Assembly: GCA_002633005.1 (NCBI GenBank)
Contig: NMRA01000390.1
Location: 298,355-362,354 of the forward strand
Source of the DNA: Phoronis australis
Lineage: Eukaryota > Animalia > Phoronida
DNA: 64,000 nucleotides
Direction of reading: 5' to 3'
Positions 2,860 to 49,093 of the stretch are shown here, one piece after another (the first letter of the stretch is position 1; each line of letters starts with the position of its first letter). The notes under the pieces were generated by a model, which did not search any database, had not been told where the DNA came from, and was given only the letters and a program-made list of their open reading frames with translations. The position numbers were made by a program, and so were the translations under genes.

Positions 2860-2967
2860 CTAGAAAAGATACATACCCGCACTTTTATAACAAGAACAAA
2901 TTTACATAACTGGTGTAACAGGGCTAGACGTAAGTGAATAAACACTACAACGTACCAGTGGAAAAAG

Positions 2968-7400: not shown

Positions 7401-8462
7401 CTATCACTTTATTGAATGAACTGGTCCAGGATTATTAATACGCTAATTGTTCACATATTTTGCACAAAAATCGCCAAACTAGTTATTTTTTGATGAGTAG
7501 AAACTTTACCAAAAATGTTGCCTTTTGACATCTAAACAGTATTTCTAAACCAAGCTAATAGACAATAATTTTCTTTAAAAATCTTAAACTTAATGATTTT
7601 TAGTAGGTATGAGTTAATCTAGATGAACATATTATTTAATTTCTCTGACTATAATCGTTAATTTTGTTAACAAAGTTGAAAAAATTTTGCAAGTTTGCCA
7701 CACTGTGTCAAATTGGTGAAAAATTACCATATACCAGCTATATTTTGTCCTTGCTCAAAATGTCACCATATGTCAAGTAATTTAACACTAAACCTTTTTC
7801 ACTGGTGGCACTGCTGCAGTGTAAAACAACTATACTTAAGCAGATCAGTTATTAAAACGCCACTCACTCCTGGGTTTAGGAAAAGGGACGTAGACTTAGA
7901 TATGTGACACAAAACTTGATTAACGTTGCATTTTTGTAACCAACGAAGTTCAGCTATGATGTGGAATTATTTATCAACATTAAGATGGGACTTAATGACC
8001 TTGGGTCCGACTGAAGCGCACAACTATATTTCAGGGTCACAGGGAAAGTACAGAAAAATTGACCAAATTAGGACAAAATGTGGCAGATAAAAGAAATATA
8101 TTTTGTCCTTTTTTCGACAAAAGATGGGTAGCCCCACATTAAAGCTTTTCCATGTTCAAGTTATGAAGCACAGCTTCAACCAGACAATATATTGACAAAT
8201 AGTGGGTATTCAAAAAATGTAAGAACCATTGATGAAAGAAAAAGTCGAACTTGTGGAATTACTTTTGTCCGAAATTAGAATAGATTTCATTGTAAGTACT
8301 ATATTCACACAGGTTGAATCTTTTTAACAATTTTTGTGACTTGTGATCAGAATGCCAAAATCCTTGATAATGAGAGACAAGTAAGAAAACTTTTAAAGCG
8401 CAAAATAATATTGTCTTAGTGGAAAGCATCTCAGAAGCTGAAAATTTGAAATTCAAAATTAC

Positions 8463-8572
8463 CATGCCAACAGCTTCCTTGTCAAATGGGTTCCAGGGTA
8501 CATTGTCAGGATAGTGCGCCAACACGTGTGACTTGTATGGCCTGTCCAAAGGCTGAATGTGCAGGCTGTCAC
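8463..8572 (-). CDS. DENND5: DENND5 coding exon 2
   Basis: GDSLHIQPLDRPYKSHVLAHYPDNVPWNPFDKEAVGM; TTTATTAG acceptor, GTAATT donor; phase 1 to 0. Confidence 0.93.
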
Positions 8573-11979: not shown

Positions 11980-14198
11980 TTTGAAGCACAGGTGTCCTCA
12001 GCAGCTCAGCTTCTGGTCGTCCCCAATACCCTATATATAATACTACAAGGTATGACACTCCGGACCAGAAATTCCACGGGGGCTTCACTTGAGCCATCCA
12101 TATCAAACACAAAACAATAAATTTACACAAAACAAGGTTTCAACAAACCATTAGTAGGGAGGACAATGTTTTTATTTTTTTTGCAATACCCATGTGTCAT
12201 ACATTTTTGAAAAGCCCTTGGTGTGAGAAATGAAATGGTGCAAAAACCAGAAAAATTGGGCGAGCGGTTACCGAGAAAATGGACGTTGAAATGCGACGAT
12301 TATGCGTAAAATATCTGCCTTTTTACATAATTTCGTAAACAATAAAAGAATATACATGTGCTGCATATAAAAATATTCGTCTCATTGAGACAAACTTGGT
12401 GGTGTGTAAATTTGGATCGATTTCTACAGAGATATTGCTGTTTAAATGTGTTCTTAGCATATGGAACAGGCTCATCATCAACCTCATGTTTGATGAAAAC
12501 AATGCATTACACAGCTTAAAAGGTAAAGAGCAAAAAACAACACATCAGTTCAAAAATAAATACATCTGAGCTAGGAGGAAATTTCACATCAAATCACAAG
12601 ACAACATTAGTGGATTTGGGGAGGGGCAAGAGGGCCAGCCCTTATAAACAGTCCCCCCCCAAAAAAAAACTCCCAGATTTCATTTAGCAATTTGAGGGTG
12701 CAAATATCTTATGGGTAAAATCCTGCGTAATACTCTGCCCTGGCCCCCCCCCCCTCCTATCTAAAAATCCTAGATCTGCCCTTGAATACTACTATCTGGG
12801 CAACATATCATGGCCTGACAGGGGGCTGGGGTCGCTGGGGAAGGCTATAGCTCCCCCACTGCTGGGTGCCACCCATGTACTATTAGATTGTATCATAGCA
12901 TCAGAAAGTAGACAAAAGACCATTTGGGAAAACAAAAAACTCTTAACATGAAGGATTTCATCATTTACGCAACAAAAACTCTTTGTAACAGCTTTATTTC
13001 GAACGGTGAAGTTGTGGTGCAATTGAACTTCAACATAGCCGCTCGTGGCGCTGACATGCGGCGACTTAGTGAACTAACGACTGCTGCTTGAAAAGTGCCA
13101 ATGCGCAGCAGTTTGACAGAATTTCCGAAAAAGAAATAATTACCAATTAAAAGAGTGATAAATTCTTCATCTAAAAATCTGGGGGGGACTGGAAAAACAT
13201 CTCCCGACCGACCAAAATTAGGCCTTCCAGACGATCGAAAACTCCCCATGAAAACTTGGCTTTGACTTCGACAAAACAACTTGAGGAGACGTGCACGCAT
13301 CTAACCTACATCCTGGCCAAATTTCATGTTTGTATTCGAGAGTATAGTGCTCTTTTGGATAGGAGGAACAAGAGGCACTTTTTCGAAAGTTGATTGCATG
13401 GCGGAAAATCGTGCGCTACAAAAAGCTTACAAAAATGATTTATCAGCAATAATTCGAGACAAAAAGATTACAAAACTTAGAAGTAAAGACTAAGGTAATG
13501 ATTTATAACAATATTGTCTTATAGTTAACGTTGAAGTCTGAAATTGGGTATAATTTACTGACGTGGGTTTTACACGGAGGCCGATGTGGAGCACCGTGAC
13601 CTACTTTTCGATTGTCCTGCCTACCATTAGCAATTGTTCTTTCTTCTAATACCACTCGTGGTGTCCTGCTCCAGTGAGTTCACAACAAATTCGTGGTCAA
13701 AGCACAAAAATGTTCCCAAAAAGCCCACGCATCGAGCCTTCTTGGACGGTTCGAGGTCAAGGACGGTACGGCAATTGCCGATTTGTCATGGACTGTCACG
13801 ACATCGATAACTCCACATTAGCCAGACCATTTCGTAACCTTCCGTGAGAAACTGGCAATTGCCGTCCATCGGTAACTCATCAGATAATTTCATACCGTCC
13901 TTGACCTTGAACCGTCCAAGGAGGCTCGATGCGTGGGCTTTTTGGGAACATTTTTGTGCTTTGATAGCGAATTTGTTGCGATCTCGCTGAAGCAGGACAC
14001 CGTGAATGGTATTAGAGGAAAGAACAATTGCTAATGGTTTGTTCAAACCTTGTTTTGTGTAAATTTATTGAGTTTTGTGTTTGATATGGACGGCTGAAGT
14101 GAAGCACCTGTGAAATTTCTGTTCGGGAGTGTCATACCTTGTAGTATTATGTAGTGTATTGGGGATGATCAGAAGCTGAGGACGCATGTGGTTTGAAG
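11980..14198. mobile_element. Foldback/palindromic element (arms ~350 bp) interrupted by a nested insertion
   Basis: 11980-12154 plus 13624-13790 is the reverse complement of ~13860-14198 once 12155-13623 is removed. Confidence 0.7.
12155..13623. mobile_element. Non-autonomous DNA transposon with 13-bp TIR (TAGGGAGGACAAT/ATTGTCCTGCCTA) and 7-bp TSD CCATTAG
   Basis: TSD at 12148-12154 and 13624-13630; the insertion splits one arm of the foldback element. Confidence 0.8.
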
Positions 14199-14599
14199 TC
14201 GTTAAGAAGCAATTACTATCTCTGAATAATCTTCAAAAATATAGCATGCAGGATTACTTCACTATTGTATTTGAACACATTGGCATTCATAAGGGTATAT
14301 TAGCCTTGTAAAGCTACAGATTAGGCAATACCTAGGGCCTTGGTTGGCTAGACAGGGGCTACAATACTTCCCATTGCTTTCTGCACGAATTTTGTCCCGT
14401 GTATTTTAAATGGGTGGTAGGCTAAATCTGCTCACCGACTAAGAGGTTTTAAAATCATTGAAAATACATTTTACACTTAAAATTGTCACTTAAAACTTAA
14501 GGATCGGGCTAAACTTAAGGTATTAGCCAAAGTGATTATTTGAAGGATCTGAAACTTTTAGAATATTTTCAAAAGTTATTAGCCAAATACATTCTCCTT

Positions 14600-14830
14600 A
14601 TTCCCGGGTTACAGCGGGAGTACGTCGGCCACATGGGCTCAATGTTGACTTAAAAAATTCGGCAGGGGTTCTGGCCCTAGATCCCCGGGTTAAGGCGGGA
14701 GTACATCCGCCACATGGGGATTTAAATGATATTGACCTTTAAAAAAGTTGAGGGGGTTCTCCCTATCCCTGGGTTACAGCAGGGCTATGTTAGCCACATG
14801 GGCATTTCATTGACGTTGACCTAAAAAAAT
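14600..14830. repeat. Three diverged ~80-bp tandem units (CCCGGGTTACAGCGGGAGTAC...GCCACATGGG); duplicated at ~18240-18470
   Basis: Visible recurring motif. Confidence 0.7.
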
Positions 14831-16115
14831 TTGTATGCCATTACTTCACTGCACTTGATGGTTCCCATTGATCATAGAAACCTGAAAAGTGAGATACATC
14901 CTTCATGGAATTCTTATGGAAATTAAGTAGGTAAAAATTGATAAAAAACTCATTGTCTTAGAACACGTCACGAGATATGAAAGACCCCTTCATTTCATGA
15001 GTTTTGTTCATGCATGCTGGAGAACTAACAGTTATCCCAGAAGTCTTCATGGGAATTGAGAGATCTATACCACTGAGAACGACAAGGTCAAATATGTGAT
15101 CAGAATAGTCAAATTGCCTGCAAAGCCATTCAAACTGTGTTAGTGTTTAATGTCAATTTTGAGGTCACATGAGTTAACCATTATTACATGTGGACAAACT
15201 GTTCTAGAGTTGGACTGTACAGTCAAACTGTGTCATCGGATCACCTGCAGTATTGTGCAATGCAATCACATCTGGTTATATGCAAGAGTGAGTGCTGACT
15301 CGTGATGTCACCTGATGGTACTAGAGGTACTGGAACCTACTAGGCAAAACTACATCAGACTCCTGGATCTTTCTGAAACGTTCCTTGTACCTGAAGTTAA
15401 CTGTTAGCTAAAGTACTTTCATTTGCGTGAGCAAACCTGAGCAAGCTTTTTCAACCAGGATTCTGTTTTACGTCGCAAGCCCTGTCGTAACAAAGATATT
15501 TGTAGGCAAAGTTATTGTCACGGCAACATATTGCCACATTTCTGTAGCTACCATTGAACATTCCTGTGTAGTACATGGTAGAGTACATTCAAACTGAATG
15601 CAGAGAATGACTTTGGAGACCCAAAAGTCCACCATTTACAGTTGATTAGTTTCATTGGTGTAATTGTCACTGGAAGTACATGTCTCTCTTTAACAACATA
15701 CTGCTGTCGCAGCTGTTTGATGACAACCCACATCATACCACACTGCAGCTATATGCATTTTGTATTAATATTGGCCGTAATTGTCGACAAATGTACCCGT
15801 ATTGACCTATTTTCAATGAAGTGACCTAAAAGCTGAGCATGGAATTGACTTGTGTTTTTCTCCATATAGATATTGACTTGAGTAAATGTTCAGAAATCTC
15901 ATGTGATAACTTGGTGTGTTTTTGAATGAAATTACTCATATGTGAAATTTAGGCTCATGAACTTTCTTACTGTAAGCAAGTTTGTTTTACGTGAGTACTA
16001 ACTTTATTTAGTGTTCATGTGGTATAGTTTTCCTGTGGTGATTTTTCTACCTGAATATGTCTCTGTGTTATCATGTTAATCTCATGTAGGTTTGTGTGTG
16101 TATTTGCTTGTTTAG

Positions 16116-16244
16116 GTGGCTAATAGAAGTATGAGTGATGAAGTGAGCAAGGCCCAAACTGCGGCACCCAACCAGGAGAAAACCATTTTTGGTAAAATTG
16201 TCGATGGAACAATTCCTGCAGATATTATCTATCAAGATGATCTG
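16116..16244 (+). CDS. HINT2: HINT2-like exon 2, copy A
   Basis: VANRSMSDEVSKAQTAAPNQEKTIFGKIVDGTIPADIIYQDDL (HINT family TIFGKI..IPA.IIY.DD); TTTAG acceptor, GTATGT donor; 129 nt. Confidence 0.85.
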
Positions 16245-16479
16245 GTATGTTGGATTTTACTTCTCAACTTGATGCATTTGTTCGCAGCTGGGTGTCCAAC
16301 ATTTTTGGCTTCCAGCTTTGTTTAAGTAAACTATGCAGCATAGGAGCTATTTGAGATTTACTGATTGAGGTCTGATTTGACAGTCTGTAATTAAAAGTTT
16401 CAGAACACTTTACAGCAAAATAGTGAAGTATTATTTTCTCAAAATATTTTACAAAAATAAACAAAAAGGAAATCTGTTA

Positions 16480-17497
16480 CAGGGCTCGACGCTATTAAAA
16501 TCGCCAGGTCGCATTTTGCGACCTAGCCAAAATCCCAGGTCGCATTTTCAAAATCCAGCTCGCATTAGTAAATGCCAGGTCGCAAAATTTTCCCGCCATT
16601 TTTACGCGCCAAAATAGATTTTTTAGATCATCGAGAAAGTGTTTAGATTATGATCTTACCTGCAGCGTTAAATACTCACAAATTAATTTCGGATCTCAAA
16701 ATTGACTTCATTCATGCAGGTACGGCCTTACTGTTCTTCACGACTGCCATTGAAAGACTCTAGAGCGCAAGGCAAGTTGCCGACGTGAAAGTTGAATCAG
16801 TGCTCTCTAACTGACTTGTGCATTCGAGTAGCTAAATTTGCGATGTGAAAAGGGAGAAAATCCCCGTTGAAAAAGTGTCCGGGATTTTGTTAGATCTGGC
16901 CTTACAAGTACGGGAAAAATAGGTCAGTCACAAAACGATACGCATGTCACTAGTGTTAACTTTCTTTCCGAGGTATAAAACAAAGCCGGGATTTTGTTTT
17001 TACATATTGTGAAAAGAGGTTTTTGAAAACTGAAGTCGTGTACAGTGAAAGTGACACACCATATAAGCTGCGTGACAATTTTAAACCACACGCGGTCGTT
17101 TGTAGTGCACTATGATGGGCGCTAGCTTGAACTGTGGGCGCTAAATTGGAAATTCGCAAAATTTAAGAGGGGACTTTTAATAGATCAATGAGCGCTTATT
17201 ATGAAACACTTTAAAGGTAGGGAGTAGGCTTGTGCGTGAGCATAGTTGTTAACCTCAGCGGTAATAAGATATTAAAACGCTGCAATGGTAAGAAACGTTA
17301 TAATGAAATACGATTTTGCGAGGCAAACTCCATCTAGTAGGGATGACTTTCTGGATATCGTTACCACCTACATTGTACCCTTTTTAGCCACCCGGAAAGA
17401 TTTTGTTTGTAACTGCCCGCTTCAGCCGGAACAAGATTGTTTCTATAGGAGTCTGAACATTTTACGGCGACGGTGGTTAGGGGAGCGAAAAGTTGCC
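16480..17497. mobile_element. hAT-like element left end (CAGGGCTCG...), truncated at the N join; absent from the duplicate copy
   Basis: CAGGG terminus with subterminal GGTCGCA repeats; the homologous site at ~20345 is empty. Confidence 0.6.
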
Positions 17498-19713
17498 NTT
17501 GCCGTCCATCGGTAACTCATCAGATAATTTCATACCGTCCTTGACCTTGAACCGTCCAAGGAGGCTCGATGCGTGGGCTTTTTGGGAACATTTTTGTGCT
17601 TTGATAGCGAATTTGTTGCGATCTCGCTGGAGCAGGACACCGTGAATGGTATTAGAGGAAAGAACAATTGCTAATGGTTTGTTCAAACCTTGTTTTGTGT
17701 AAATTTATTGAGTTTTGTGTTTGATATGGACGGCTGAAGTGAAGCACCTGTGAAATTTCTGTTCGGGAGTGTCATACCTTGTAGTATTATGTAGTGTATT
17801 GGGGATGATCAGAAGCTGAGGACGCATGTGGTTTGAAGTCGTTAAGAAGCAATTACTATCTCTGAATAATCTTCAAAAATATAGCATGCAGGATTACTTC
17901 ACTATTGTATTTGAACACATTGGCATTCATAAGGGTATATTAGCCTTGTAAAGCTACAGGTTAGGCAATACCTAGGGCCTTGGTTGGCTAGACAGGGGCT
18001 ACAATACTTCCCATCGCTTTCTGCACGAATTTTGTCCCGTGTATTTTAAATGGGTGGTAGGCTAAATCTGCTCACCGACTAAGAGGTTTTAAAATCATTG
18101 AAAATACATTTTACACTTAAAATTGTCACTTAAAACTTAAGGATCGGGCTAAACTTAAGGTATTAGCCAAAGTGATTATTTGAAGGATCTGAAACTTTTA
18201 GAATATTTTCAAAAGTTATTAGCCAAATACATTCTCCTTATTCCCGGGTTACAGCGGGAGTACGTCGGCCACATGGGCTCAATGTTGACTTAAAAAATTC
18301 GGCAGGGGTTCTGGCCCTAGATCCCCGGGTTAAGGCGGGAGTACATCCGCCACATGGGGATTTAAATGATATTGACCTTTAAAAAAGTTGAGGGGGTTCT
18401 CCCTATCCCTGGGTTACAGCAGGGCTATGTTAGCCACATGGGCATTTCATTGACGTTGACCTAAAAAAATTTGCATGCCATTACTTCACTGCACTTGATG
18501 GTTCCCATTGATCATAGAAACCTGAAAAGTGAGATACATCCTTCATGGAATTCTTATGGAAATTAAATAGGTAAAAATTGATAAAAAACTCATTGTCTTA
18601 GAACACGTCACGAGATATGAAAGACCCCTTCATTTCATGAGTCTTGTTCATGCATGCTGGAGAACTAACAGTTATCCCAGAAGTCTTCAAGGGAATTGAG
18701 AGATCTATACCACTGAGAACTACAAGGTCAAATATTTGATCAGGATAGCCAAATTGCCTGCAAAGCCATTCAAACTGTGTTAGTGTTTAATGTCAAATTT
18801 GAGGTCACATGAGTTAACCATTGTTGCATGTGGACAAACTGCTCTAGAGTTGGACTGTACAGTCAAACTTTGTCATCGTTTCACCCGCAGTATTGTGCAA
18901 TGCAATCACATCTGGTTATGCAAGAGTGAGTGCTGACTCGTAATGTCACCTGATGGTACTGGAGGTTCTAGAACTTACTAGGCAAAACTACATCAGACTC
19001 CTGGATCTTTCTGAAACTTTCCTTGTACCTGAAATTCACTGTTAGCTAAAGTACTTTCATTTGTTATCTTGGCTTTGGGACATTGCGTGAGGAAACCTGA
19101 GCAAGCTTTTTCAACCAGGATTCTTTTTTACGTCGCAAGCCCTGTCGTAACAAAGATATTTGTAGGCAAAGTTATTGTCAAGGCAACATATTGCTGCATT
19201 TCTGTAGCAACCATTGAACATTCCTGTGTAGTACATGGTAGAGTACATTCAAACTGAATGCAGAGAATGACTTTGGAGATCCAAAAGTCCACCATTTACA
19301 GTTGATTAGTTTCATTGGTGTAATTGTCACTGGAAGTACATGTCTCTCCTTAACAACATCCTGCTGTCGCAGCTGTTTGATGACAACCCACATCATACCA
19401 CACTGCGGCTATAAGCATTTTGTATTAATATTGGCCGTAATTGTCGACAAATATACCCGTATTGACCTATTTTCAATGAAGTGACCTAAAAGCTGAGCAT
19501 GGAATTGTCTTGTGTTTTTCTCCATATAGACATTGGCTTGTGTAAATGTTCAGAAATCTCGTGTGATAACTTGGTATGTTTTTGAATGTAAGTACTCATA
19601 TGGGAAATGTAGGCTTGTGAATTTTATAACTGTAAGCAAGTTTGTTTTACGTGAGTATAAGTAACTAACTTTATTTATTGTTTGTGTGGTATAGTTTTCC
19701 TGTGGGGATTTTT

Positions 19714-20404: not shown

Positions 20405-21861
20405 ATTTTTATGCTTCCACATAGTTATGTAATATGGGTGCATTATGCCATCATCCCCATTCGTCCATCTATGCAGTGTTCAGCATCCTCTGCTGTATCT
20501 TCAAAACCCGTGGTGGATGTACGTGAAATTTTGCTAACATATTCTTATCGTAGATGGGATGGCATGAGTGAATTTTCGGACAGGTCCGACTGTGGTTTCT
20601 CCCCTAGTGGCAAATTTAGTTTTTTACATTTGCCTCTCTATCTTGACAGATTTGCATTAAATTTTGCAAATACTTAGATGCCGTCTTGTTTTCGGATGAA
20701 TTTGACACTTTCTGCGCTAGACGTAGTACCCATTTTTATGCGCCTACATATTTATATGTTGCCGCTGTTGCTTCAAAGGTCTTCAACCGATTTTCATGAA
20801 ATTTGGTACATAGGCATCTATGAATGAGTTAACGCTATCCTCTCGTTTTTGGATTGCTTCGATGGATTTTGTGCCATCTAGTGGCCATTTTTACTATTTT
20901 CGAGTCGTTTTTTGACGTCCGCTCCTCTAACACCCAAACCACTATAAGGGTGATTGTGAAAATTGGCATGTATGGTCTTATTATGAAGAAGACTGTTGAC
21001 GATGATTTTCCAATGACTTCGACTAGTGTGGCGCCTCCTAGTGGTAGTTTCGTTTGTTTTTGCGCCCATGGCTGTATCTCCTAAACGCTCTACAGGATCT
21101 TTCTTAAATTTAACAAATGTGTTGACAACAGACGACGACGACTTTGGGACAGATCGGTCTACCGGTGTGCCCCCTTGTGGCAATTTTAGTTTTTTACGGT
21201 TATCGCTGTATCTTCAAAGATACTCAACGGATTTCCATAAAATTTGGCTCATAGACATCCATTAGTGAGGTGACGCTAGCCATTCATCTTCGGATTGATT
21301 CGAGGTTTTTGCGCCACCTAGTGGCCATTTTTGTTGTTTTTGAGTCTGTTTTGTTGCGTTTGTCCCTCTGTCAACGAAGCCACTCTAAGGATGATTATGA
21401 AAGTTGGCATGTATGTATTTTCTATGAAGGGGACGGTTGCCGATGATTTTCTTATGACTTTGACTACTTTGGCGCCTCCTCGTGGCGGTTTTGTATTTTT
21501 TTGCACCCATACCTGTATTTCCTAAGCCTTCTGCAGGATCTTTATTATATTTAGCACTTGTATGAAGTTAACAAGAAAAGAAGACAACTTTTAGACGGAT
21601 CCGATGAACACTGTGCCCCCTAGAGGCAATTTCGTTTTTTTGTTTTCCTCTGTTGCTCTGAAATTCCTTGGCGAATTTTAATTAAAATTGGTAAGTGACT
21701 TTCTTTTAAAGAAACAATGACATTTTTTTTTGTTTTCAGACGGATTTGGTGTATTTTGCGCCATCTAGTGACCATTTTAATGATACAAATAAACAACCCT
21801 AAAAGCACACCATTTGCGATGCATTCGTGGGCGCATTTCAACGCTCTGCCTTGCTCTTGTT
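20405..21861 (+). mobile_element. Helentron-associated (HINE/DINE-like) non-autonomous element with internal ~150-bp tandem units
   Basis: 5' TTTTTATGCGCC(T/C)AC, 3' subterminal inverted GTGGGCGCAT, 3' hairpin and CTCTTGTT end; same family at 23355-24600 and 36104-38396. Confidence 0.7.
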
Positions 21862-22754
21862 ACAGCTTGTCTAGAGCTCTATCTGCCAAACTACTCTAAG
21901 AATGATTATGAAAATTGGCATTATGTCTTCCAAGCGGGAATTAGAAGGCTGACAATGATTTTCAGATGACTCCGACTATTGTGGCACTTCCTAGTGGTAG
22001 TTTTGTTTTTTGTCCACAGCTGTATGAAATAAACCCCTTGCATGAAATTTGTTAGTTTTGGCAAATGAATTTATATAAAAGTGACAACAGATGACTAATA
22101 CTTTTGGACGGAACCGACTACTACAGACTGCACCTCTTAGTGGGTGTGGCTTCATATTTTCCTATGTATATTGGGAGTTTGATAGTTGACGGATTTTCAT
22201 GCTTTTCTGTTGTGACACTTTGCCATTTTCCGATAGATTCGACCTATTATACGCCAACTGATGAATATTGTAATTATTTTAGTGTTATTTTGGCATCCGC
22301 TTTGTATCTACCAAATCACTCTAAGGATCATTATGAAAACTGGCCAATGAGTTTCTACTGGGAAGTGCATGACTGACGACAGTTTTGAATTGGTCCGACT
22401 ATTGTGGGACCCTCTTGTTGTAATTTTAATTTTTGCCTATGGCTCATTGTGCAAGTTCCTTGATGGATTTCATGAAATTTGGAAAATATTATTGAGTTCT
22501 GTCAGTGGTGCTTGTGGCATTGTCTTTGATGTTAACAGTGCCCAGTGGCGATGTCATGGTCTTTGATTTCACCTTGTATAATGCTGCGTGTCTAGAGTTT
22601 CTATTTTATTAATTGTTTCAAAGAATTTGAAACTTCTAGTTGTCTGTCATGACATCACACTCTTTATGGTTCTTTTGCGATAGTAAGGTTGTTGTGTCTC
22701 CATGACCTAGTTGGTTTTGCTTTTATTTTGGTATTATCAAGCCACTAAGTTTGA

Positions 22755-22970
<216 letters not shown>

Positions 22971-23027
22971 TAATACTCAATAAATGTCATTGAACAGTGA
23001 AGGCAAAATCCATGAAACAGTTGTTAA

Positions 23028-23353
23028 GAGCAATTCCATATAAAAACCAGATGGTGGGCTATATATGCAAAATCACCAATTTTTTTGAAACTTAGCATAT
23101 CAGCTGGCCTTGTCAAAAGAAACCTGAGCCTGAATTTTTAAGAGTTTCCGAGTTTTTTTTAACCCTTTTTACGACCACTTTGTACTTTTTCCGAAAAATA
23201 GCAAATAATAGTACTTGGAAGTAGGTGACTTTTTGTCAGCAACAACACATCATCGCTTCACGCTATAAAAAAATAACTATATAGCAGAAAGAAGAAAGAA
23301 TAACGTACAAGAAAAACTAGTTCGGATGTATTTTTTGATTTTTTATGTCCTCC
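23028..23353. mobile_element. Insertion at TTAA starting GAG (Sola3-like terminus), truncated at N; absent from the duplicate copy
   Basis: TTAA|GAGCAATTCC in copy A vs empty TTAA|GTTCTGG at ~26535 in copy B. Confidence 0.5.
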
Positions 23354-23354
23354 N

Positions 23355-24600
23355 GCGTCCGGCGTCCGCGGCTGTACCTCCTAAAACCCTTGCAGGATCG
23401 TATTGAAATTTGGTAGGTGTGCTCCTATGGGGTCTAAAACTGAGGGCTGCGAGTTTCGGACCGACCCGAATACCGCTGTGACCCCTAGTGGCAATTTTAG
23501 TTTTTTATGTTTGCCTCTGTTGCTTCAACCGATTTTCATGAAATTTGGTACATAGGCATCTATTAACGAGTTAACACTATCCTCTTGTTTTCGGATTGCT
23601 TCGATGGATTTTGCACCATCTAGTGGCCATTTTTACTATTTTCAAGTCGTTTTTTGACGTCCACTCTTCTAACAACCAAACCACTATAAGGGTGCTTGTG
23701 AAAATTGGCATGTATGGTCTTACTATGAAGAAGACTGTTGACGATGATTTTCCAATGACTTCGACTAGCGTGGCGCCTCCTAGTGGTAGTTTCGTTTGTT
23801 TTTGCGCCCATGACTGTATCTCCTAAACGCTCTACAGGATCTTTATTAAATTTAACAAATGTGTTGACAACAGACGACGACGACTTTGGGACAGATCGGT
23901 CTACCGGTGTGCCCCCTTGTGGCGATTTTAGTTTTTTACGTTTATCGCAGTATCTTCAAAGATACTCAACGGATTTCCATAAAATTTGGCACATAGACAT
24001 CCATTAGTGAGGTGACGCTAGCCATTCATCTTCGGATTGATTTGAAGTTTTTACGCCACCTAGTGGCCATTTTTGTTGTTTTTGAGTCTGTTTTGTGGCG
24101 TTTGTCCCTCTGTCAACCAAGCCACTCTAAGGAGGATTATGAAAGTTGGCATGTATGTATTTTCTATGAAGGGGACGGTTGCCGATGATTTTCTGATGAC
24201 TTTGACTACTTTGGGGCCTCCTAGTGGCGGTTTTGTATTTTTTGCACCCATACCTGTATTTCCTAAGCCTTCTGCAGGATCTTTATTAAATTTAGCACCT
24301 GTATGAAGTTAACAAGAAAAGACGACGACTTTTAGACGGATCTGATGAACACTGTGCCCCCTAGTGGCAATTTCGTTTTTTTGTTTTCCTCTGTTTCTCT
24401 GAAATTCCTTGGCGAATTTTAATTAAAATTGGTAAATGGCTTTCTTTTAAAGAAACAATGACATTTTTTGTTTTCAGATGGATTTGGCGTATGTTGCGCC
24501 ATCTAGTGACCATTTTAATGATACAAAAAAAACAACCCTAAAAGCACACCATTTGCGATGCATTCGTGGGCGCATTTCAGCGCTCTGTGTTGCTCTTGTT
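23355..24600 (+). mobile_element. Helentron-associated element, duplicate or allelic copy
   Basis: GTCC-like 5' repeats, same internal units and GTGGGCGCAT...GCTCTTGTT end. Confidence 0.65.
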
Positions 24601-24866
24601 ACAGCTTGTCTAGAGCTCTATCTGCCAAACTAATGTAAGAATGATTATGAAAATGGGCATTATGTCTTTCAAGCGGGAATTAGAAGGCTGACAATGATTT
24701 TCAGATGACTCCAACTATTGTGGCACTTCCTAGTGGTAGTTTTGTTTTTTGTCCACAGCTGTATGAAATAAACCCCTTGCATGAAATTTGTTAGTTTTGG
24801 CAAATGAATTTATATAAAAGTGACAACAGATGGCTAATACTTTTGGACGGAACTGACTACTACAGA

Positions 24867-26454: not shown

Positions 26455-27613
26455 TAATACTCAATAAATGTCATTGAACAGTGAAGGCAAAGCGCGAACA
26501 TACTTTTTGAGACAAAATCCATGAAACAATTGTTAAGTTCTGGGATAAAAAAGGTGACATGTTCTGTGAATCTTTAATCTATTTTCGTGAATGTTCATGA
26601 CTGTAACAATGAACGGTACATTCACTCAAGCACAGGTTAGGTTCCCTTTGTGAAGCGTATAAGCCACTTTACCTGGAACAAGTAGTAAAGCTGGTCACAA
26701 AATGTTACCTGTAGGCCCAATACATGGTATTGTAGCCAGACTTGCAACCACAACGATAGACTTCCATGAATTTCCATGGGGAAGGTTGTAGATTGATCAT
26801 GATTGGCAGTAAGTTCACTGCACTGACTTTTAAGTCACAGTACACTGAAAAAAGTCATTTCAACACCTAACCACTTCTGGGTCTGGAGGGATGGTATAGT
26901 TAGCGTAACTGTATTTGTCTGAAGCCGTCATAGGAGGAAGTGCCCTAGGCTAAACTGACACTGTGTTTGTAGCAACTTCCACGCAGAATCTTTCATACCT
27001 CAGAATTAAAAGTGGCCATTGTACACCCAAACTAGGGATGTTTCTTCCGTAGACTCAATATCAATTTTTTTTATCTAATTGGCTCATGAAAATCTATGCC
27101 GGATTTTGGAAATGACTGTCAGATAGGATCTTTGAGATTGATAGTTTCTTGGCCAAACTGTAATAAACATCATACTGGTGTGACAGCCAATAATGAACTG
27201 TCTTTGCTGCTTGGTTGGACATTGTACCCATCAGGCACTTACTAGTAACATTCTGTTACTGCATGCCATTCTTAAGTGTGATAGCACATGTAGTTTGGGT
27301 AAGAAATCATGTCAAGAACATTCCAACTATCTCTCTAGACCAGGACCAATTTCTAATGTGATTTAGTGATGCAGTATGCCATGTTGGAAACTACTCTCCA
27401 ATGTCAGAATAATTCATGGACTTTTTTGCTGACAAAATTGTTATTACTTGACCAATTTTGAAAATGTTTATTCCTCTGCTACAATTTTATAGTTTCCATT
27501 GGTATTCATGTCCCAAAAAGAGAATGGAAAATATAGTCTGGATGCTTTCAAGCCTTCTACATGTATTTAGATATGATCTTATAAGTAGCAAAAATTACCC
27601 TCACTGTGTGACC

Positions 27614-30009
27614 TACTCTGGAGTTCCAAATAGTTGTAGAGACAGCAATAATAGTATAGACTGGAAAATTTCACGATTTTTAATAATAGTAGAGACTAAT
27701 AATAGTATAAGACCCAACATTTTTGCCACTAGAAAAGTAGAATAATAGTATAGACCGGAAATTTTCGGAAAAACAATAATAGTATAGAATGGAATAATGG
27801 TATAGACGGCAAATTTGTGGAAATCTAAACATAGTATAGACTGGAATAATAATATTGATTATAAATTTAGGTAAAGTCTAATAATGATATAGAAGGGAAC
27901 AATAATGCAAAACAGCAAATTCTAGGGAATAATGGTACAGACGGGAAGTTTGTGGAAAATTAAAAATAGTATAGACTCGAATAATAACATTGATTACAAA
28001 TTTGCGTAAAATCTAGTAACGGAAGATGGAAATAGTAGAAAGTGCAAAATCTAATAATGATATAGATGGGAATAATAGTGCAAAGAAGCAAATTCTGTCT
28101 GACTTGCCACCGCTTTAAGTAATTATTTCAAAGAAAAACTTAAAACTGAACATTAGCATACAGTGTAGTAAAATTATTGCATTGGTGTATCCACCCATGC
28201 CATAACATAGTACAGTGGAATGGAATATTAGTGTCATTGCTAAAACAAAGACCATTAGTTTATTCAATAACTTTAAATGGAAGTCTATATAGACGTGTTT
28301 TAAACAGTATGCTGAATCATTTTACTCAAAAAAGACTGTGACATTCATACTAGAGATGCCAATGTTGACTAAGTCCAAAAACTATAACAAGGAGGTAAAG
28401 ATTTCAGCAGCAACGTCCAGTCTTCCACGAAGCCGACAGTCTGAATAAAGACAATAAAGTGTCTTGGTAAAACGAGTCGCATTTTTATCGTACATTTTCC
28501 TGACAGTCGAGGCTTTTATTTTATTTTATTTTCTTTCAATCTCTTGTCTTGCACAACGTTCACAGTCAATACCCTCCTAATGTTAGTCAGAATTCGATGT
28601 CAAAAAGTCGGTACATCCAAAATTTCACACGGCCAGAAATTGAGATTTCTTACAGAATTGCCCAACATTCGAGTGCACGACCACGACTACGTCCACCATC
28701 TTGAATATCTAATTAGGTATAAACAAACCGATTCACGTGCGTTTTTCCATTTATTTGGACAGGAGAGCATCCAAGTAGAAATCAATTTCAATAGATATCG
28801 ACTGGATTTTCGAACGTTAACAACTATGTCATTTTCAAGATTGTCACAAGTACATTCTTCCTGTTCATAAAATAATCTATTCTCAAGTTTGGAGCGAATT
28901 GTAAAAATCCTGATGTTCGATGGCGATATTGTCAGCAACTTTTTGACTGAAAAGTTTGACACCGTTCATTAATTGTACGGGTATTTGCGCTTCGTGGACT
29001 GGTCGCGTTATCACCGCGGTCCGTATCTGTAGCTTGATTATTTGTCGTACCAACATCTGAATCATTGTCTGTATCTGGAACATCTCTGGGTTTGTAAAAT
29101 AATCCTCGAATTCTTTAGGCCTTTGCACGGCAGACGACATGATTAAGTATGCGGAATGTGCATGTCAATAATGACGGAAACCGCAGATGACACTGGCTGT
29201 GCAAAATTTCGGAATTACTCCCCCCGGAAACGCAAACTTTGGGGACAATCACAGTGAAGAGTTGTAATGGCTTGCCAGTTTTTCACAGGGTGCAATCATA
29301 AATATTGGATCACCCAAAGAAACTCGTTGAAAGCGTTTTTATTCACATGAATGTTGAGCTGCCGGTAACACCGATCTGTGTCACGGGGTGCGCGGAATAT
29401 TGAAAAATGCACTTTTTGAACATTTCTCATTTCTGAAATTACTGATGGCCTATTTTTTTGAGTGGCTGCCAACCAGCCGTTAATATTGAGAGAAGTGGTC
29501 CTCATTTCAAACTTTTTAAATTTTGCCAAAACTTTCTTAATTCTGACCGATCCCGTCAAATCCGTCCAAAATAACATTCTGGCCGTCCAACAGACGGCCG
29601 CTGCGTAAACCCTTGCTTGGGAGACCGACTATTTTACGCTTTGAAACATACAGTTGTATATTTTAGGAAATAAACTCTTTTAATGTGTATGACACGTGAC
29701 TTCCATTTCGTATATAGCTCTTCTAAATTACAACCTCAGAACTGAGAGTCTCGTGGTCTAGAGGTTTAGAGCGAATTAACTTTGTCTTATGACCATGGTA
29801 CGATACCCGGTATCAGCAGCAAATTTTTTGTGTAACAAATTTGTATTGAAGAAACAAAAATTGTGACCTTGCTGAATCAAATAATCGTGGAGAGTGGAAA
29901 AAGGTTAGTAAATTAATAAACGTAGAGACCCGAATAAGCGTCGTATAGAACGGAAAACGAGTCTGAAAAAAATAATCGTATAGATACGGCTATTCAGAAC
30001 TCGAGAGTA
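27614..30009. mobile_element. DNA transposon with TA-flanked imperfect TIRs, subterminal AATAAT(A/C)GTATAGA arrays and decayed internal ORFs
   Basis: TACTCTGGAGTTCCAAATAG at left vs reverse complement TACTCTCGAGTTCTGAATAG at right; tandem subterminal motifs at 27645-28080 and 29880-29990. Confidence 0.7.
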
Positions 30010-30848
30010 GGTGAATAAAGTCACTCTATTGATAACTATCCCCCTATTGTGATTGGAATGTGGATAGAACTGGTATGGGTGACCAGTTAAATTCAAAAGA
30101 TTTCTCCCAATGTGTCCTTATCTCCTGTAAATTGGATGTTTACAGCTTTTTATCAAGCTCATTGAACAAGTCTAAAAGTGAGTTTCACAACCAGGAAAGG
30201 ATATCCATGGGCCAATTGAGATGACATCATCTCTGTAGGTGAATCAACCCTAGTTTGGTTGTTGTTTGGTAACCTTCACTTTAGTATATCAGTGTCGTCA
30301 TAGATTATAGACAACAGATTCGCAACTCCTTCATTTTCTTACATGCTAGCCAAGAGGCGCCGCCACTCTCCTCACCTTTCTGGTGCAGTTTCCGGTTAGT
30401 GTATTTTGACGAGAAATATTTGCATCTACATTACAGTCCAGTACAACGAAAAAAATATTAATTTCGACATTGAAACGCTGTTCAAAGTCTTTCAATAGTA
30501 GAAGTGTTGGTATCGTGAGTACTTTTGGCAATGCTGCTGGTAATTAATTACAAAATTCAAACTTCGGTGCTGACTGATTATGTCGTCTGCTTGCCCAATA
30601 GCATAGCAGCATTTGATAGTGATTTATGGTTCACGTAGGCCTACTGAGAAAACTACGAAAGCATGTTTGTGCACAAGTTCCAAGGAGTATCCTGTGAATG
30701 CAAAAGACATATAACGTTTTTGGTTTAGAAAAATATCAATTTTGTTTGAATTAAAAAATGCGCCTCTGCAACAATTTGACTATTTTAACCTTTGCATGTT
30801 TATAATTCAACATTCTCAAGTGAGCAGTTCTTCTGGGAAGTGTTGAGT

Positions 30849-30905
30849 GGCCCTTAAAAGGGCCATTGGTTGTAGGTATAGCGTGAAATGGTTCTTAAAA
30901 GAACC
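30849..30905 (-). other. Two tandem histone-mRNA-type 3' stem-loops (GGTTCT-TTTA-AGAACC 30890-30905; GGCCCT-TTTA-AGGGCC 30849-30864)
   Basis: 6-bp stem/4-nt UYUN loop consensus with AAC/CCAAT 5' flanks; ACTCA and a purine-rich CAGAAGAA follow the distal loop. Confidence 0.7.
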
Positions 30906-30915
30906 GTTGAATAAT

Positions 30916-31248
30916 TCAACATAAATCACACAGTATACCATGCTCACTCAAGTACTGAAGGTCCTCTTCATTCAAGTTTTCATCTGGGAATGTTGGATGA
31001 AAACAGAGGAGATGACAACATCGATGACAGTTGTAACACCTTATATAATTGTTAATGTTCTCCAACATTGTCACGAACCCAGCCTCTTTCAGTTCTTATT
31101 CCTGGATTCAGAAGTAACCCTGAACCATAGTGAAAAAAGACATACACCGAAAACGAATCAAATTTTGAAAATAATCGCCTTCGTACGATTCCGTGTTGCT
31201 GTCACCAGACTGATGTTCCTCCCCAACATCAATGTCGAAAATTGACAT
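30916..31248 (-). pseudogene. Intronless 110-codon PHD-finger-like ORF with two in-frame stops, antisense in HINT intron 3
   Basis: MSIFDIDVGEEHQSGDSNTESYEGDYFQNLIRFRCMSFFTMVQGYF*IQE*ELKEAGFVTMLENINNYIRCYNCHRCCHLLCFHPTFPDENLNEEDLQYLSEHGILCDLC*; CxxC-x4-H-xxC...CxxC pattern. Confidence 0.6.
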
Positions 31249-32273
31249 TACAAGTGATGGAAAGTTGTGTCCTTTGTTTCTAACTTTTAACCCATTTTTA
31301 AGAAAGGAGTGTAGTGATTTTGTCTAACGTTGATAGAGCATAACTTTTGGTTTTTACAATGCATTAATTTTGTTGAATGCATTCATATTAGGTGGCTTCA
31401 TTCAGTTGAACAGAAAATAAATTAAATGTAACACAATAAAGTTTTGAAAATAAATAGAACAGTAACAGGACTCCCTAAAAATCGAGCTGTTTTCGAAAAC
31501 TTTGCGCCATTGGTAATCTGATTGGTTCATGCATTTATGGTGGGAAAATAATAGACCAAGTATTCTGCACGTGTGCACTGTAGCAACACTTTGCATCTTA
31601 TTCTTAGTTGACCAATCTGTTGATACAGTAAATTTCCTTATTTATGCCCATCCTGATTTGACCACAACTTGAGTTTGTTGGGTTCTATCATATATTGGGT
31701 TGGCATAGGGACTCACATGGTGCTTACTCGAATGGGCTTCATTTTACCAACTATTTCAAATTGAGGTGAAGTAAATAAACAAAGTGGGTGATTATCAACA
31801 CTGGAATTTCGTCATTATTATCTTTTGCCGGGTGCTCAAATTTTCTGAGACTAAGGTAGAAGGTAAGGTAAGGTAGAAGTGTTTCGTTGGACTTCCAGGT
31901 CTGTGGCGTTATTTATACCGGACCAAAATTAAAAAACGAGACCTTTGTTTAAATCATTAGCTGCATGATACACGTTTTATTAGACGTGTGCAGGCAGTGC
32001 ATGTGGGCCCATTGCACTGATCACTTGGAATGGAACCATTTTTATGGTTTATCAATATACAGTTAAACCGAGCTGAGAAGTTTGAAACCTGATTCACGTC
32101 AATTTTTGGCATTTTGGCAGTGGGATTTTCTGAAAAATGCTCGTAAGTTAACAACAAAGTTTGATATCGATGCACTGCAGTTTTGTAGAAACTGTCACAT
32201 TTTACAGATGCGTCACAGAGCGCAAATTTGATGAATTCTAGCTTACGATTTCACCTGTTTCGGAGACCGGGTT

Positions 32274-32432
32274 CAGGGGCGGATCCAGGATTTTTAGTTA
32301 GGGGGGGGNACGGCAGTATATTGTCCAGAATTTTGGCCGTCAGACATTCGCACCCCCAAATTGCCAAATGGAATCTGGGGGAATTTTAGGGGAGGCCATG
32401 GCCCTCTTGGCTCCCATCTAAATCTGACACTG
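32274..32432. mobile_element. Short MITE (CAGGGGCGGATCC...ATCTGACACTG) with 5-bp TSD GGGTT
   Basis: Imperfect TIR, flanking GGGTT duplicates, internal G-run. Confidence 0.6.
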
Positions 32433-34669
32433 GGGTTTCAACCACTTTTGGGCTATAATAAGCGCCTCCCCTTCCTGAAGTGGATTTTTCTAAGCACCCT
32501 GGCTGCTTATTGGGGCGAATATGGTAATATTTCAGAAGGACAATACTTAGTATCTGTTTTGCAGGGGACCCTTTTGTTACTTAAGGAGTGGGATTGGTTC
32601 ATTATGTACCCTACAGGTGGCATAGGACTTTACAAAACTGGTTGAGGAATTTCATAAATGTTCGTTTGAAAGGATTGTGTTTGGAATTGTTAGGACTTAA
32701 GGCGGAATTTTAAAAAACCATGTCCGCTTACAAAAAAATTAACATTGAAGAATAAAAACAACCTTTACACCCCTCTGGTGTTCCTGTTCCATGTTTTCAA
32801 AGAAGTTGGTTGCATTTTCATAGACTGCAGTCGAGAGATTTTGTGCGGCATATATTCGACATGAAATGAGTGTGTAACCTACTGTTGAATTGCGAGATAG
32901 ATTTCGGGAAGGCAAATTGGTTATTTCTGAGCTACTGTTGTGATCTTTATTAATGTTAAAGGTTTTACCAGCATTCAATTTATTTGTACACGGATTTATA
33001 AATCGTGTAAGTCGGTGATCCATATCCCGATGAAATGTGCGCATTCTGCTGCAAGATAGTAACCGCCTGATTAGGGCCAGCCAAGGTGATTAATTTGGTT
33101 AATTCGCACACTAAACTATGGCTGAAGCTCCTAGTAAGGACAGGAGTTCGTGAATCACTATCTTTTGATAGGTTTTTCTCCCACAGCTGATTATGGAGTC
33201 TCCGTACGCTATGGAAACTTGTCCTTTGCATTTTGCCTGTGTGGCCGAAAACCCAGCCACACAGCAACCGACCATGATTAGCAGATGACGTACTTGCCGG
33301 AAATGACACCAGATAATTTAGCCAGGTGTCGCCAGTGAATAATGACGTAAGGGCTTGTGCGAAACAGCACATATTTCGTCCATTGAAAGTATTCGGAGTT
33401 GGCGGTCCATGTACTAACTATAAAGGTCATGCAAGACTTCACAGGGTGTCGCCTGGTGGCTGGTGTGCATTACGTAGAGACGAGAACCACACAAGGTCAG
33501 GCAAGACCTCACAGGCCCTCGCCATTTATTGCATTCAAAGTACATGATCACACTTTTTTTGGCTTTCTTTGTGAGATTCTTGGGTCTACAGAACTCGACT
33601 TTGATATGTAGCACAATACGGTTGTAGAGAAAATTTGTGAAGTTTCACAATGTCACTAGGAGTATAAGTTTCAGTTTATTATTACGTTATGATATGTATT
33701 GTACATGTATATATGTATCGCAGAATGTATATAATTATATATGACCAGTTAAATGTATATATATCATGGGCGGCCCCCACTTTTTTAAGTTCTACGCTGC
33801 ACATGGTCTATAGGCAGTGCACCACGGGGGGGCTGAGGGGGCTTTAGCCCCCCCTTTTTTCAGTGCTGCACTGCCCATGTATTTACTAAAACTGCATCAT
33901 TTAAGTCTTGCATTAGCTAACTCAGTGTTTGCTACAACAAATTGATGCTTTATGTTCTGAATATTAATTCTTGTGTGATATTTTCTCATTTCTAAATCTA
34001 CCATAATCATGTGTACCACCTCATCTAACTCCTTATGTTATTTAAGTATTGCGTTAATGTTCAGAGAGACTCTGTATTATCACAGCTGAAGTCTGGCATC
34101 TGGGAATGTGTTTGGCCAATTGTATTCCTACCTAATAAAAATGTGTTTCACTAAATTTGGTTTTATTAGATTTTGATATGTTGTAGAACAGTTCAAGAGC
34201 TTTCATTTTAATATATATAATTTATTACTGTTGGTTTGAACATTTCCTTATATCACCTACACTGTTGAGCGCCTCCGGTATCAGAATGGAGAAACTATTC
34301 AGTGTCGAGACTGATTAATTCTCTGGTATTCAAGGTTTACTGGACATTATATGGCCAGTGATCTACTTTTATGCACTGGACCCAATACAAAGACAGTGCA
34401 TATGAGATCATTAAATCAACCGGTTTGGGCAGACATTATTGGTAGGAGGTCATGGTTGAGTTTCGTAGATGCAACAATCTGACGGAGGAAGCTAGTGTGA
34501 TCGTATGCTTTGCTTGTAATACATGGCGATATATTGCAAATCTTTCGGGGTTCTCGTGTCTATGGAAGGCATACCTGGTGGTGTGCTTGATGGACCATGA
34601 CATAGTATGTTGCGGCCATTGATTGTCTTGTGTTGCCATTGTCATTGTGTTCTGATCATGTTGTTTCAG

Positions 34670-34742
34670 TTGTTGGGCCACTTGATGGATGTGGTCAGAA
34701 AAGTGGCCATCCAAAAAAAACTGGACAATGGTTACAGAGTAG
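34670..34742 (+). CDS. HINT2: HINT2-like exon 4
   Basis: LLGHLMDVVRKVAIQKKLDNGYRV; TTTCAG acceptor, GTGAGC donor; phase 0 to 1. Confidence 0.92.
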
Positions 34743-35093
34743 GTGAGCAACTACATTGTGTAGCAGACTTAGGACAACACCTGATATCAGACCATGTCCA
34801 CCGTTTTGTCAGCAAGAAACTTAGGGTTTTAGAAATATTTTTATGTCTTTCCTTGTTCTATGTCAAACCCATGAATAATCATTTGCAAATTTCTTACATA
34901 TTTAGTTATTTTGTTTTTAGCTAGGTTATAATCATAGTGATGTGGCAAATGTCACAAAACTTGCAGGAGTGTCTTGTAGAATCATTTCACCCAACACATA
35001 GTAGCAGTCAGTGATGGGCACAAGCATTGATTCAACCACACAAGCCATTGAATCCATTGATGGAGCTCAATCACAGCCACATGACACATATTA

Positions 35094-36103: not shown

Positions 36104-38396
36104 TTTTTATGCGTCCACATATTTATATGTGGTCGCATATTCCCCTCATCTCTGTCTAGGCATCTGGCGTTCACAGCTGTATCTTCTCCTAAACCCTTCA
36201 CAGAATCTTGATGAGATTTGGCTGTTATGTTCCTTCAGTATGAAGCTGAGGACGGACGATGACGAATTTCAAACCTCTCCAGCTACGGGTGTGCCCCCTA
36301 GTGACAATTTTAGTTTTTATGCGCCCACATATTTATATGTGGACGAATTGTGCCGTCATCTCTGTAACGCCTCCTTCGGGCGTCCGTCCGGCGTCCGCTG
36401 CTCTATCTCCAAAACGCCTTGACATATGTTCATGAAATTTTGCAGGTGTTTCTTTCGTGGATGGGACAGCATGAGCGAACTTTCAGACAGATCAGACTGC
36501 CGGTGTGCCCCCTAGTGGCAATTTTAGTTTTTTACGTTTACCTCTTTATCTTCATAAGTCCTGAACGGATTTTCATAAAATTTGTTATGTAGGCACCTAT
36601 TAGTAAGGTGACACTATCCTACCATTTTCAGATGGATTTGACATAGTTTGCGCCACCTAGTGGCCATTTTTACTGTTTTCGAGTCTGTTTTTTGCGTCCA
36701 GCCCTCTATCAACCAAACCACTCAAAGGATGATTGTGAAAATTTGCATATATTGTTACTATGAAGTAGACGGCTGACGATGATTTTCCCACGACTTCGAC
36801 TACTGTGGCAGTTTTTTTTTGCGCATATGGCTGTATCCCCTAAACGGTTCGCAGGATCTTTACTAAATGTAGTAAGTGTATTTATGTGATGTTAACAACG
36901 ACAGACGACGCCTTTCAGACGGATCTGACTACTCGGGTGTGCCACCTACTGGCAATTTTATTTTTTTACGTTTACCTCATGACATTCAAAGGTCCTAAAC
37001 GTATTTTCATAAAATTTGGCATACAGGTATCTGTTAATGAGGTGACGCTATCTCTCCATTTTCAGATGGATTCGACCTAGTTTGCGCCACCTAGTGGCCA
37101 TTTTTACTGTTTTCGAGTCTAGTTTTTGGTGTCCACTCGTCTATCAACCAAACCGCTTGTGAAAATTGTATGTTTTTACTGTGAACAAGTGGATGGCTGA
37201 CGACGATTTTCCGACGAGTTCGACTATTGTGGCGCCTCCTAGTGGCAGTTTTGTTTGTTGTTGCGCCCATGGCTGTATCTCCTAAACCCCTCACAGGATC
37301 TTGTTGAGATTTGACAGATGTGTTCCCATGAAGCTGACGACAGATGACAATGATTTTCGGACCTCTCGACTACTGGTGTGCCCCCTAGTGGCAATTTTAA
37401 TTTTTTACCCTTACCTCTGCAGATTTGGAGGTCCCCTACGAATTTACATAAAATTTGGGCATTATAGGCATCTCTTAGCCCGAGATGATGCCATCCTCAC
37501 GTTTTTGGACAGATTCGAGGTACCTTGCGTCACCTAGTGGCCATTTTTACTGTTTTCGAGTCTGTTTTTTGGCGTCCGCCGTTCTATCAACCAACCCGCT
37601 CTAAAGGGATGATTTTGAAAATTGGCATAGATGTTCTTACTGTGAAGACTGCGGCTCAAGATGATTTTCCGATGGCTTGAACTACCATGGCGCATCATAG
37701 TGGCGGTTTTGTTTGTTTGTTTTTGCGCCCATGGCTGTATCTCCTAAATGCTCTACAGGATCTTTATTGAATTTAACTGGTGTATTAATTTTATACAAAA
37801 GAGGACGACGACTTTCGTATAGATCGGGTTACTGGTGGCCCCCAATTTTATTTTTTTTTTTACTTTTACCTCTTTATCTTAAAAGATCGTCAATGGATTT
37901 TCATATAATTTGGCAGTCATGCATCTATTAGTGAGGTGACGCTGTCATCCGGTTTTTGGTAAAATTTGAGGCTTTTGCGCCACCTTGTGGCCATTTTTGC
38001 TGTTTTCGAGTCTTTTATTTGGCGTGTGCCCCTTTGTCAACCAAACCATTCTAAGGATGGTTGTGAAATTGGAATGTATGTTCCTAATGTAAAGCGAAAG
38101 TTTGATTATGATTTTCCGATGACTTTATCTGCTTTGGCGCCTCGTAGTGGCAGTTATGTTTTTGCGCTAGCCTCTTAGTGACAATTTCATTTTTTTGTTT
38201 TCCTCTGTTTTCTCAGATATTCCTTGACGGATTTTTATGAAATTTTTAAATAGCTTTGATGACACTTGACGTTTTCGGATGTATTCGACATATTTTGCGC
38301 CGTCTAGTTGGCATTTTTGTTTTCCAAATCGTACCCCTAGAGCACCGTTAACGGTGCATTCGTGGGCGCATTTCAACGCTCCGCGTTGCTCTTGTT
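36104..38396 (+). mobile_element. Helentron-associated (HINE-like) element, ~2.3 kb, with tandem CTCF-like motif array
   Basis: TTTTTATGCG(T/C)CCACATATTTATATGTGG 5' ends (36104, 36314), CGTCCGTCCGGCGTCCG tract, 3' GTGGGCGCAT plus CAACGC-TCC-GCGTTG hairpin plus CTCTTGTT. Confidence 0.75.
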
Positions 38397-48272: not shown

Positions 48273-48428
48273 TCCGGCCCAGTCATCATAATTATATAAA
48301 ACCATGTTCCTAAATGGCCTAATCCGGCTTAAAGACTGAACAACCTGATAATGATATTGTTATATTGCCACTTGAGGAGTTCGTGTTACTGGCACACTGA
48401 AGTGACTGAACCTACTTATATGTTCCAG

Positions 48429-48668
48429 AGAAAACTGGATGACAGTGCCGTCATCTATTACCCTGTTTCATTTCAACCTTCGAAGTGTGTTAAAGTTTCT
48501 TTTTGGTACTACGGCTACGGTTCAACATTAGGAAAGTTGGCTGTGGTAGCTAAACACGGATCGTCATCATCATGGACAGAACACGCCTTTGCCTCGACAC
48601 TTAGCTACCAACAGTGGAGGTATAAAGAAGTCTCTGTACATCCAAGCAACGCCCAGCCAAGTGTTATG
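48429..48668 (+). CDS. MAM1 exon b
   Basis: RKLDDSAVIYYP...KCVKVSFWYYGYGSTLGKLAVV...QQWRYKEVSV (MAM C..F.Y...G...G.L.V...W); phase 0-0. Confidence 0.88.
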
Positions 48669-49093
48669 GTAAGTTATGAAGTTTGTTTTCTGGAGGGAAG
48701 TGTTAAAGCGACCGGTCAGTTGTAAAACTGACTCTAACTAGTTCCTTACTCAGTTTAGAGGTAACATGTTATTCCTGGACTTGGAATGAACTTGAGACTT
48801 GGCTACTGTTCTTGAGATCCACCTCACTAAGTGGTGACATTTTATGCGGCAAGGACGGTCTTGAGCAATAGCAATACCGAACCAGAAATCATTCCTCATG
48901 AGAGTTGACAACAAGATTATAGCGGTGAATCGTCTAAATCAAACAGTCAGATGGTCAAAGGAGGCTTTACCGGCGAGCTTGCACAATGAACGCTCCGACT
49001 TGATAATTGCTGTTGCAATACCAAACACTTTACCATCTTTTATGAGTGTTGTATGAAATACTCGTTTATTACAACTTTACATCGTCATTTCAG

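Follow-up and report, generated by a model that had tools for sequence, protein, structure and literature searches.

How a gene that encodes no histone came to end in what look like two histone mRNA 3′ ends, and whether it ever used them, is the question raised by positions 30849 to 31248 of the window, the 64,000-nucleotide stretch of the Phoronis australis genome analyzed here. A sequence-only reading had seen in this segment a decayed copy of a mobile cassette that expressed a small PHD-finger-like protein as a histone-like mRNA. According to the accessible part of PMC4604434, no cellular mRNAs but the replication-dependent histone mRNAs are known to be non-polyadenylated, and no stem-loop target of SLBP outside the histones was found in HeLa cells. 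We find that the window holds a dead copy of a PHD-like gene from a high-copy repeat, itself likely a DNA transposon, which probably made use of the pathway that serves histone messages. Processing of the lineage's accessory PHD gene by SLBP and U7 is the reading we favor, with a probability of roughly 55%.

Re-reading of the minus strand confirmed an intronless frame of 110 codons running from an ATG at 31248 to a TGA at 30916 with two internal stops, as had been described from the letters. Seven of the eight zinc ligands of a C4HC3 pattern are recognizable in it. Against a profile of 19 family sequences that excluded the window ORF, the ORF scored 57 bits (E 7.5e-11, computed for a search size of 1e9), and hhalign matched it to the PHD-like family at 99% (E 5.5e-18); the Pfam PHD model matched the ORF alone weakly, below its cut-off (E 0.13). 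Its closest relative, P0001 (69% over 74% of the query), reads through both window stop positions and, like other family proteins, has the first CxxC, which relatives had been expected to restore. P0001 starts five codons later than 31248, and that ATG may not be the original start of the window ORF. Because five consecutive residues at the first CxxC are unlike those of P0001, a short compensated frameshift is possible there. Judged by these comparisons, the window ORF belongs, in decayed form, to a conserved ~108-aa C4HC3 PHD-like family. Two CCAAT boxes on the minus strand ~265–280 nt upstream of the ORF (31509..31525) are a possible promoter.

The family was collected by a profile search, which gave six matches, two of them spurious, and by an iterated search, which gave 20 proteins, mostly 107–111 aa long and including unnamed proteins of Dreissena polymorpha. 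The two spurious profile matches, P0003 and P0005, were unrelated, low-complexity sequences and were dropped. All eight ligands, arranged as C-x2-C-x34-C-x4-C-x4-H-x2-C-x24-C-x2-C, are kept in 24 of 28 family proteins and in none of the three sequences of the window's own clade (window ORF, P0001 and P0002), which form a separate long-branched group with 100/100 support in a tree whose midpoint root serves for drawing only. An intact member of this clade was not found among the family proteins; neither was a fused, longer PHD form of the family, which is weak evidence, nor a name for the family in the sources examined. Viral contigs yielded no relatives of the ORF (one 38-aa row was spurious) and no match to the hairpin patterns.

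The family shares with PHD fingers (Pfam PHD, PF00628) the C4HC3 ligand order and the C-x(2-4)-C-x4-H-x2-C core, and differs from them in carrying a helical insert of 34 residues behind the first CxxC and in being a stand-alone protein of ~108 aa. One member, P0004, passes Pfam PHD_NSD (PF22908) with 27.7 against a cut-off of 23.9. For the predicted model of P0019 (pLDDT 78), PHD fingers ranked first in both fold searches, although weakly: the best Foldseek E was 0.24, with nothing at E 0.001, and the top 13 rows from VIA were PHD-containing chains, the best of them with Z 4.1 and an rmsd of 3.4 over 64 aligned residues. The earlier assignment to PHD folds was upheld in rank and remained weak in score; together with the 57-bit profile match and the PHD_NSD pass of P0004, this ranking speaks for a PHD finger. 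We read the family, from sequences and a predicted model, as PHD-like fingers that have diverged and carry a helical insert. In methyl-lysine-reading PHDs, the cage residue is a Trp two residues before the His. The family has a Tyr at that position, which makes H3K4me3 reading doubtful. Histone binding of any kind is conjectural, and chromatin reading by the protein is a guess from the predicted fold.

Behind the stop, on the same strand, the two tandem histone-type hairpins of the earlier description were confirmed in coordinates, spacing and compensating pairs, and they are the only pattern matches in the window. Stem-loop 1 (30890..30905) lies 10 nt past the stop, and stem-loop 2 (30849..30864) lies 51 nt past the stop and 25 nt past stem-loop 1. 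Both are in sense orientation, carry G-C at stem position 2 and U at loop position 3, and form in the MFE structure (z −4.3). The G-C pair 2, loop U3 and a short stop distance are diagnostic hairpin criteria in the part available to us of 10.64898/2026.10.14.759114 (section 9), which also gives a median of 30 nt between stop and hairpin for metazoan histones and a rule of cleavage five nt past the stem. Under that rule, cleavage is predicted after 30844, behind the ACTCA that follows hairpin 2. With Rfam Histone3 (RF00032, gathering score 34), hairpin 2 scored 34.1 bits, just at the cut-off, and hairpin 1 scored 22.8 bits (E 0.007), below it, so the expected match to this model was obtained for one hairpin and fell short for the other. 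Hairpin 2 has a CCAA flank on its 5′ side and AAGA at the expected distance within a candidate histone downstream element, CAGAAGAA (30828..30835, minus strand), 14–21 nt after stem 2. The purine-rich downstream element claimed earlier thus has a candidate behind hairpin 2, which is short (8/15 purines, vs. 7/15 behind hairpin 1), and none behind hairpin 1, in whose next 25 nt no AAA/AAGA box was found. No AATAAA or ATTAAA occurs from the ORF stop to the element end; a weak TATAAA lies at 30804.

Shuffled sequence gave an expectation of 0.01 pattern matches in 64 kb, against the two observed, 41 nt apart. The stems differ at four positions that make up two compensated pairs, an outcome that random substitution yields 0.09–0.8% of the time, and random placement of a hairpin within the element would put it in sense and ≤60 nt past the stop about 1% of the time. 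That the hairpins or the reading frame arose by chance might be suspected from the Pfam PHD score of the window ORF under the cut-off and from the score of hairpin 1 under Rfam gathering, but this explanation deserves next to no weight, as the pattern-match statistics and the family profile match (E 7.5e-11) refute a chance origin.

The surroundings of the ORF were characterized with one DNA run and three RNA runs carrying the same species label, mapped onto positions 27000–35000. Summed contig depth was ~1000–10000 over 30204–33407 vs. ~10 in the unique flanks (a measure of depth, not of copy number), and loose read ends piled up at 30299 and 33416. Contig depth, loose ends and deletion joints outline a host repeat of ~3.1 kb at 30299..33431, situated among other repeats of an animal genome; the boundaries left open by the sequence-only reading can now be estimated at 30299 and ~33416–33431. 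The likely left terminus, CATAGATTATAG (30299..30310, plus strand), is marked in run X7 by 260 reads with loose ends at 30299 and is the sole exact match in the window. The likely right terminus (33405..33431, plus strand; 240–309 reads per RNA run) is degraded in the window copy; reads from other copies run past 33416, and their letters complete a 12-bp inverted repeat of the left end. Of the terminal repeats and target-site duplication anticipated for the cassette, the former were thus recovered as likely 12-bp inverted ends, and no clear target-site duplication was found in the flanks of the repeat. Deletion joints leading from 30326, 30412, 30530 and 30535 to 33257–33287 look like independent internal deletions that kept both ends. 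A 133-nt segment at 30664..30796, bounded by a short direct repeat, is missing from many other copies (joint 30663–30797, loose ends at 30797).

From these features, we infer that the host repeat is likely a non-autonomous TIR DNA transposon. The depth, the defined ends and the internal-deletion derivatives support the earlier view of a mobile cassette, present in many copies, of which the window holds a decayed one. A PolB-like phrase near 30500–30440 had prompted a Maverick/Polinton reading; this was rejected, as 27500–33420 gave no Pfam match to PolB, integrase or capsid, and no viral gene was recognized inside the repeat. For the element ends, an Academ or Crypton identity was also considered, as an assumption of ours. 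The element contains a short, very high-copy insert at 32274–32435, likely a MITE, which many joints skip.

Linkage of the hairpins to the ORF extends to other copies in the species. High-depth contigs, among them X1 record 3 (30815–30960, depth 164, one difference), join the ORF end and both stems, as does X3 record 11; the distance from one hairpin to the other varies among copies and is greater in some, and a few copies have a changed stem 2. The hairpins belong to the repeat family. Positions with a listed difference among copies number 2/24 in the stems, 2/8 in the loops and 29/139 elsewhere (p 0.12, not significant), the family being too uniform for selection to be visible. The main rival to processing, which we rate as less likely, is passenger capture: pieces of one or two host histone 3′ UTRs came to lie behind the PHD ORF and spread with the family unused. 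In a repeat family that is young and uniform, shared stems need no selection, and the compensated stem pairs could have been inherited from two different captured histone genes. Such a passenger would not be expected to lie right behind the stop in the sense orientation, a placement with a chance of ~1%, nor to comprise two hairpins instead of one. No histone coding remnant accompanies the hairpins in the six frames of 30013–33420 (Pfam at E up to 1), and the gene has no alternative canonical poly(A) signal.

The lack of a processed end in the RNA data counts for passenger capture. In runs X5 and X6, there was neither an end pile-up nor a depth drop at 30844 (~18% of reads, many copies, library selection unspecified); reads lay on both strands, and 56–61% of them continued into unlike sequence. 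This pattern resembles transcription running through embedded copies and is of little help in placing the 3′ end of a real transcript. Poly(A) selection and decayed copies could mask a processed end. Between 30790 and 30960, the RNA of X5 and X6 also shows A>G (and T>C) changes with a strand bias, many of the A>G ones in one mate direction, which the DNA contigs mostly lack; A-to-I editing of transcripts made from both strands of the repeat is the likely cause.

Distant relatives of the gene were found on eight metagenome contigs from two assemblies (L002–L009), which encode the other clade of the PHD-like family (31–35% identity) and which probably derive from few hosts, so that they are not independent. 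Four further matches (L001, L010, L011 and L012; E about 1e-4 over 13–38 aa) were dropped as spurious. Seven of the eight contigs are informative, having DNA behind the PHD stop; L004 ends within the PHD ORF. None of these seven carries a hairpin behind the stop, either with Histone3 at E up to 0.5 or with a relaxed hairpin pattern. The absence counts for passenger capture and against general use, and the earlier expectation that the hairpins are kept beside the ORF held for other copies in the same species and failed at these distant loci. Because the hairpins are missing from all seven, the signal would be at most lineage-specific, as far as surveyed.

Where the window has hairpins, the distant loci have a second gene. 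The next long ORF starts with an ATG 2 nt past the PHD stop in L003, L005 and L006 and 31 nt past it in L002; L007–L009 are decayed. The following ORF matches DUF7869 with 27.7 bits against a cut-off of 26, and the C-terminal ORF of L006 has three acidic motifs at 98, 176 and 217. We take the motifs of this transposase-like ORF to be those of a Sola transposase. Its predicted model (pLDDT 39) gave a best Foldseek E of 0.02, to terminase nuclease domains; the model is too poor to judge the fold. No paper on DUF7869 was found in our literature search. Since relatives of the window ORF lie directly upstream of a transposase-like ORF, the PHD-like family is likely a transposon accessory gene. The near-abutting ORFs suggest that their translation is coupled or that they are alternatively spliced from an intron in the 5′ UTR, and L002, L003, L005 and L006 possibly represent an undescribed two-ORF Sola-type layout. 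L002–L004 have a splice-acceptor-like AG just before the PHD start. In the window, tblastn and phmmer with the L002–L006 ORFs returned no significant transposase match, and the host repeat may be non-autonomous or of another superfamily than Sola.

Weighed together, the sense hairpins close to the stop, the compensated pairs, the missing canonical poly(A) signal, the missing histone coding remnant and the linkage in copies speak for SLBP/U7 use, and the seven distant loci, the RNA without an end at 30844, the non-significant difference between stems and other positions (p 0.12), the short downstream box and the failure to find an intact member of the window's clade or a transposase in the element speak against it. 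If, in the active ancestor of this copy, the gene was processed in this way, Pol II would have started upstream, at the CCAAT boxes, and transcribed the intronless ORF with both hairpins. SLBP would have bound the two hairpins, the U7 snRNP would have paired with the AGAAGAA box that follows hairpin 2, and cleavage by CPSF73 would have come after the ACTCA behind stem 2. This would have yielded a poly(A)-minus mRNA that bears two SLBP sites and is stabilized and translated in S phase or in oocytes. The encoded PHD-like protein likely served as an accessory of transposition.

The hairpins may instead have been used in part, bound by SLBP for stability, translation or a transcription stop that spares the element end from read-through, with weak U7 cleavage and an mRNA that was polyadenylated or ended elsewhere. 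The lack of a downstream box behind hairpin 1, the short box behind hairpin 2 and the weak TATAAA at 30804 would fit, and polyadenylated, SLBP-dependent maternal histone mRNAs are described in the accessible part of PMC11997800. The full layout of hairpin 2, with CCAA flank, ACTCA tail and AAGA spacing, argues against partial use, and we regard it as quite improbable. Returning to full SLBP/U7 processing, we put at about even odds the wider proposal that an animal transposon lineage swapped a bicistronic PHD–transposase layout for a stand-alone PHD gene whose end combines a double SLBP site with a U7 box, and so would have had a non-polyadenylated, non-histone mRNA and a transposition cofactor tied to S phase or the oocyte.

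The 3′ end of the window gene resembles that of metazoan replication-dependent histone mRNAs in its 16-nt hairpin with a 6-bp stem, G-C pair 2 and loop U3, and in the CAA-type 5′ flank, ACTCA tail, AAGA box, close stop, missing AATAAA and intronless ORF. Unlike histone genes, the ORF encodes no histone, its hairpins are in tandem, and it lies in a dispersed high-copy repeat. The two-ORF transposons of L002–L009 share with it the PHD protein family and the mobile-element context, but in the window, where no such transposase is detectable, hairpins stand in the place of the transposase-like ORF. In our literature search, which lacked most of the subscription literature as well as Repbase Reports and supplements to bioRxiv papers, no paper described histone stem-loops on transposon genes, and the accessible parts of PMC13525598, PMC10294476, PMC4455052 and PMC5751038 do not mention histone ends on transposon genes. 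If the processing reading is true, a transposon gene would break the rule that histone mRNAs are the sole non-polyadenylated cellular mRNAs, the element could gear its activity to DNA replication or to the germ line, and its transcript would be invisible to poly(A)-selected RNA-seq. Within one protein family, hairpins in one clade, and in the other a transposase-like ORF right behind the PHD gene, would provide a natural before-and-after for the gain of such a signal.

Several other features were observed in the window. A separate 2.4-kb repeat at 27612–30011 has ~28-bp terminal inverted repeats with CC...GG ends, a likely 3-bp TGA target duplication and decayed minus-strand frames inside; reads joining 27585 to 30025 represent a related empty site. 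Arrays of diverged 140–150-bp units at 20587–24825 and 36185–38210 carry GCCCCCTAGTGG, which we take to be CTCF-like, and are grouped in ~441-bp higher-order repeats and a 2.74-kb duplication. At 13849–19382 lies a tandem duplication, near-identical and with a ~3.65-kb period, that may be recent or else an artifact of the assembly. Ordinary animal host genes are represented by exons of a DENN-domain gene (uDENN, DENN, dDENN) at 276–4462 on the minus strand and by a MAM-domain exon at 48333–48725 on the plus strand.
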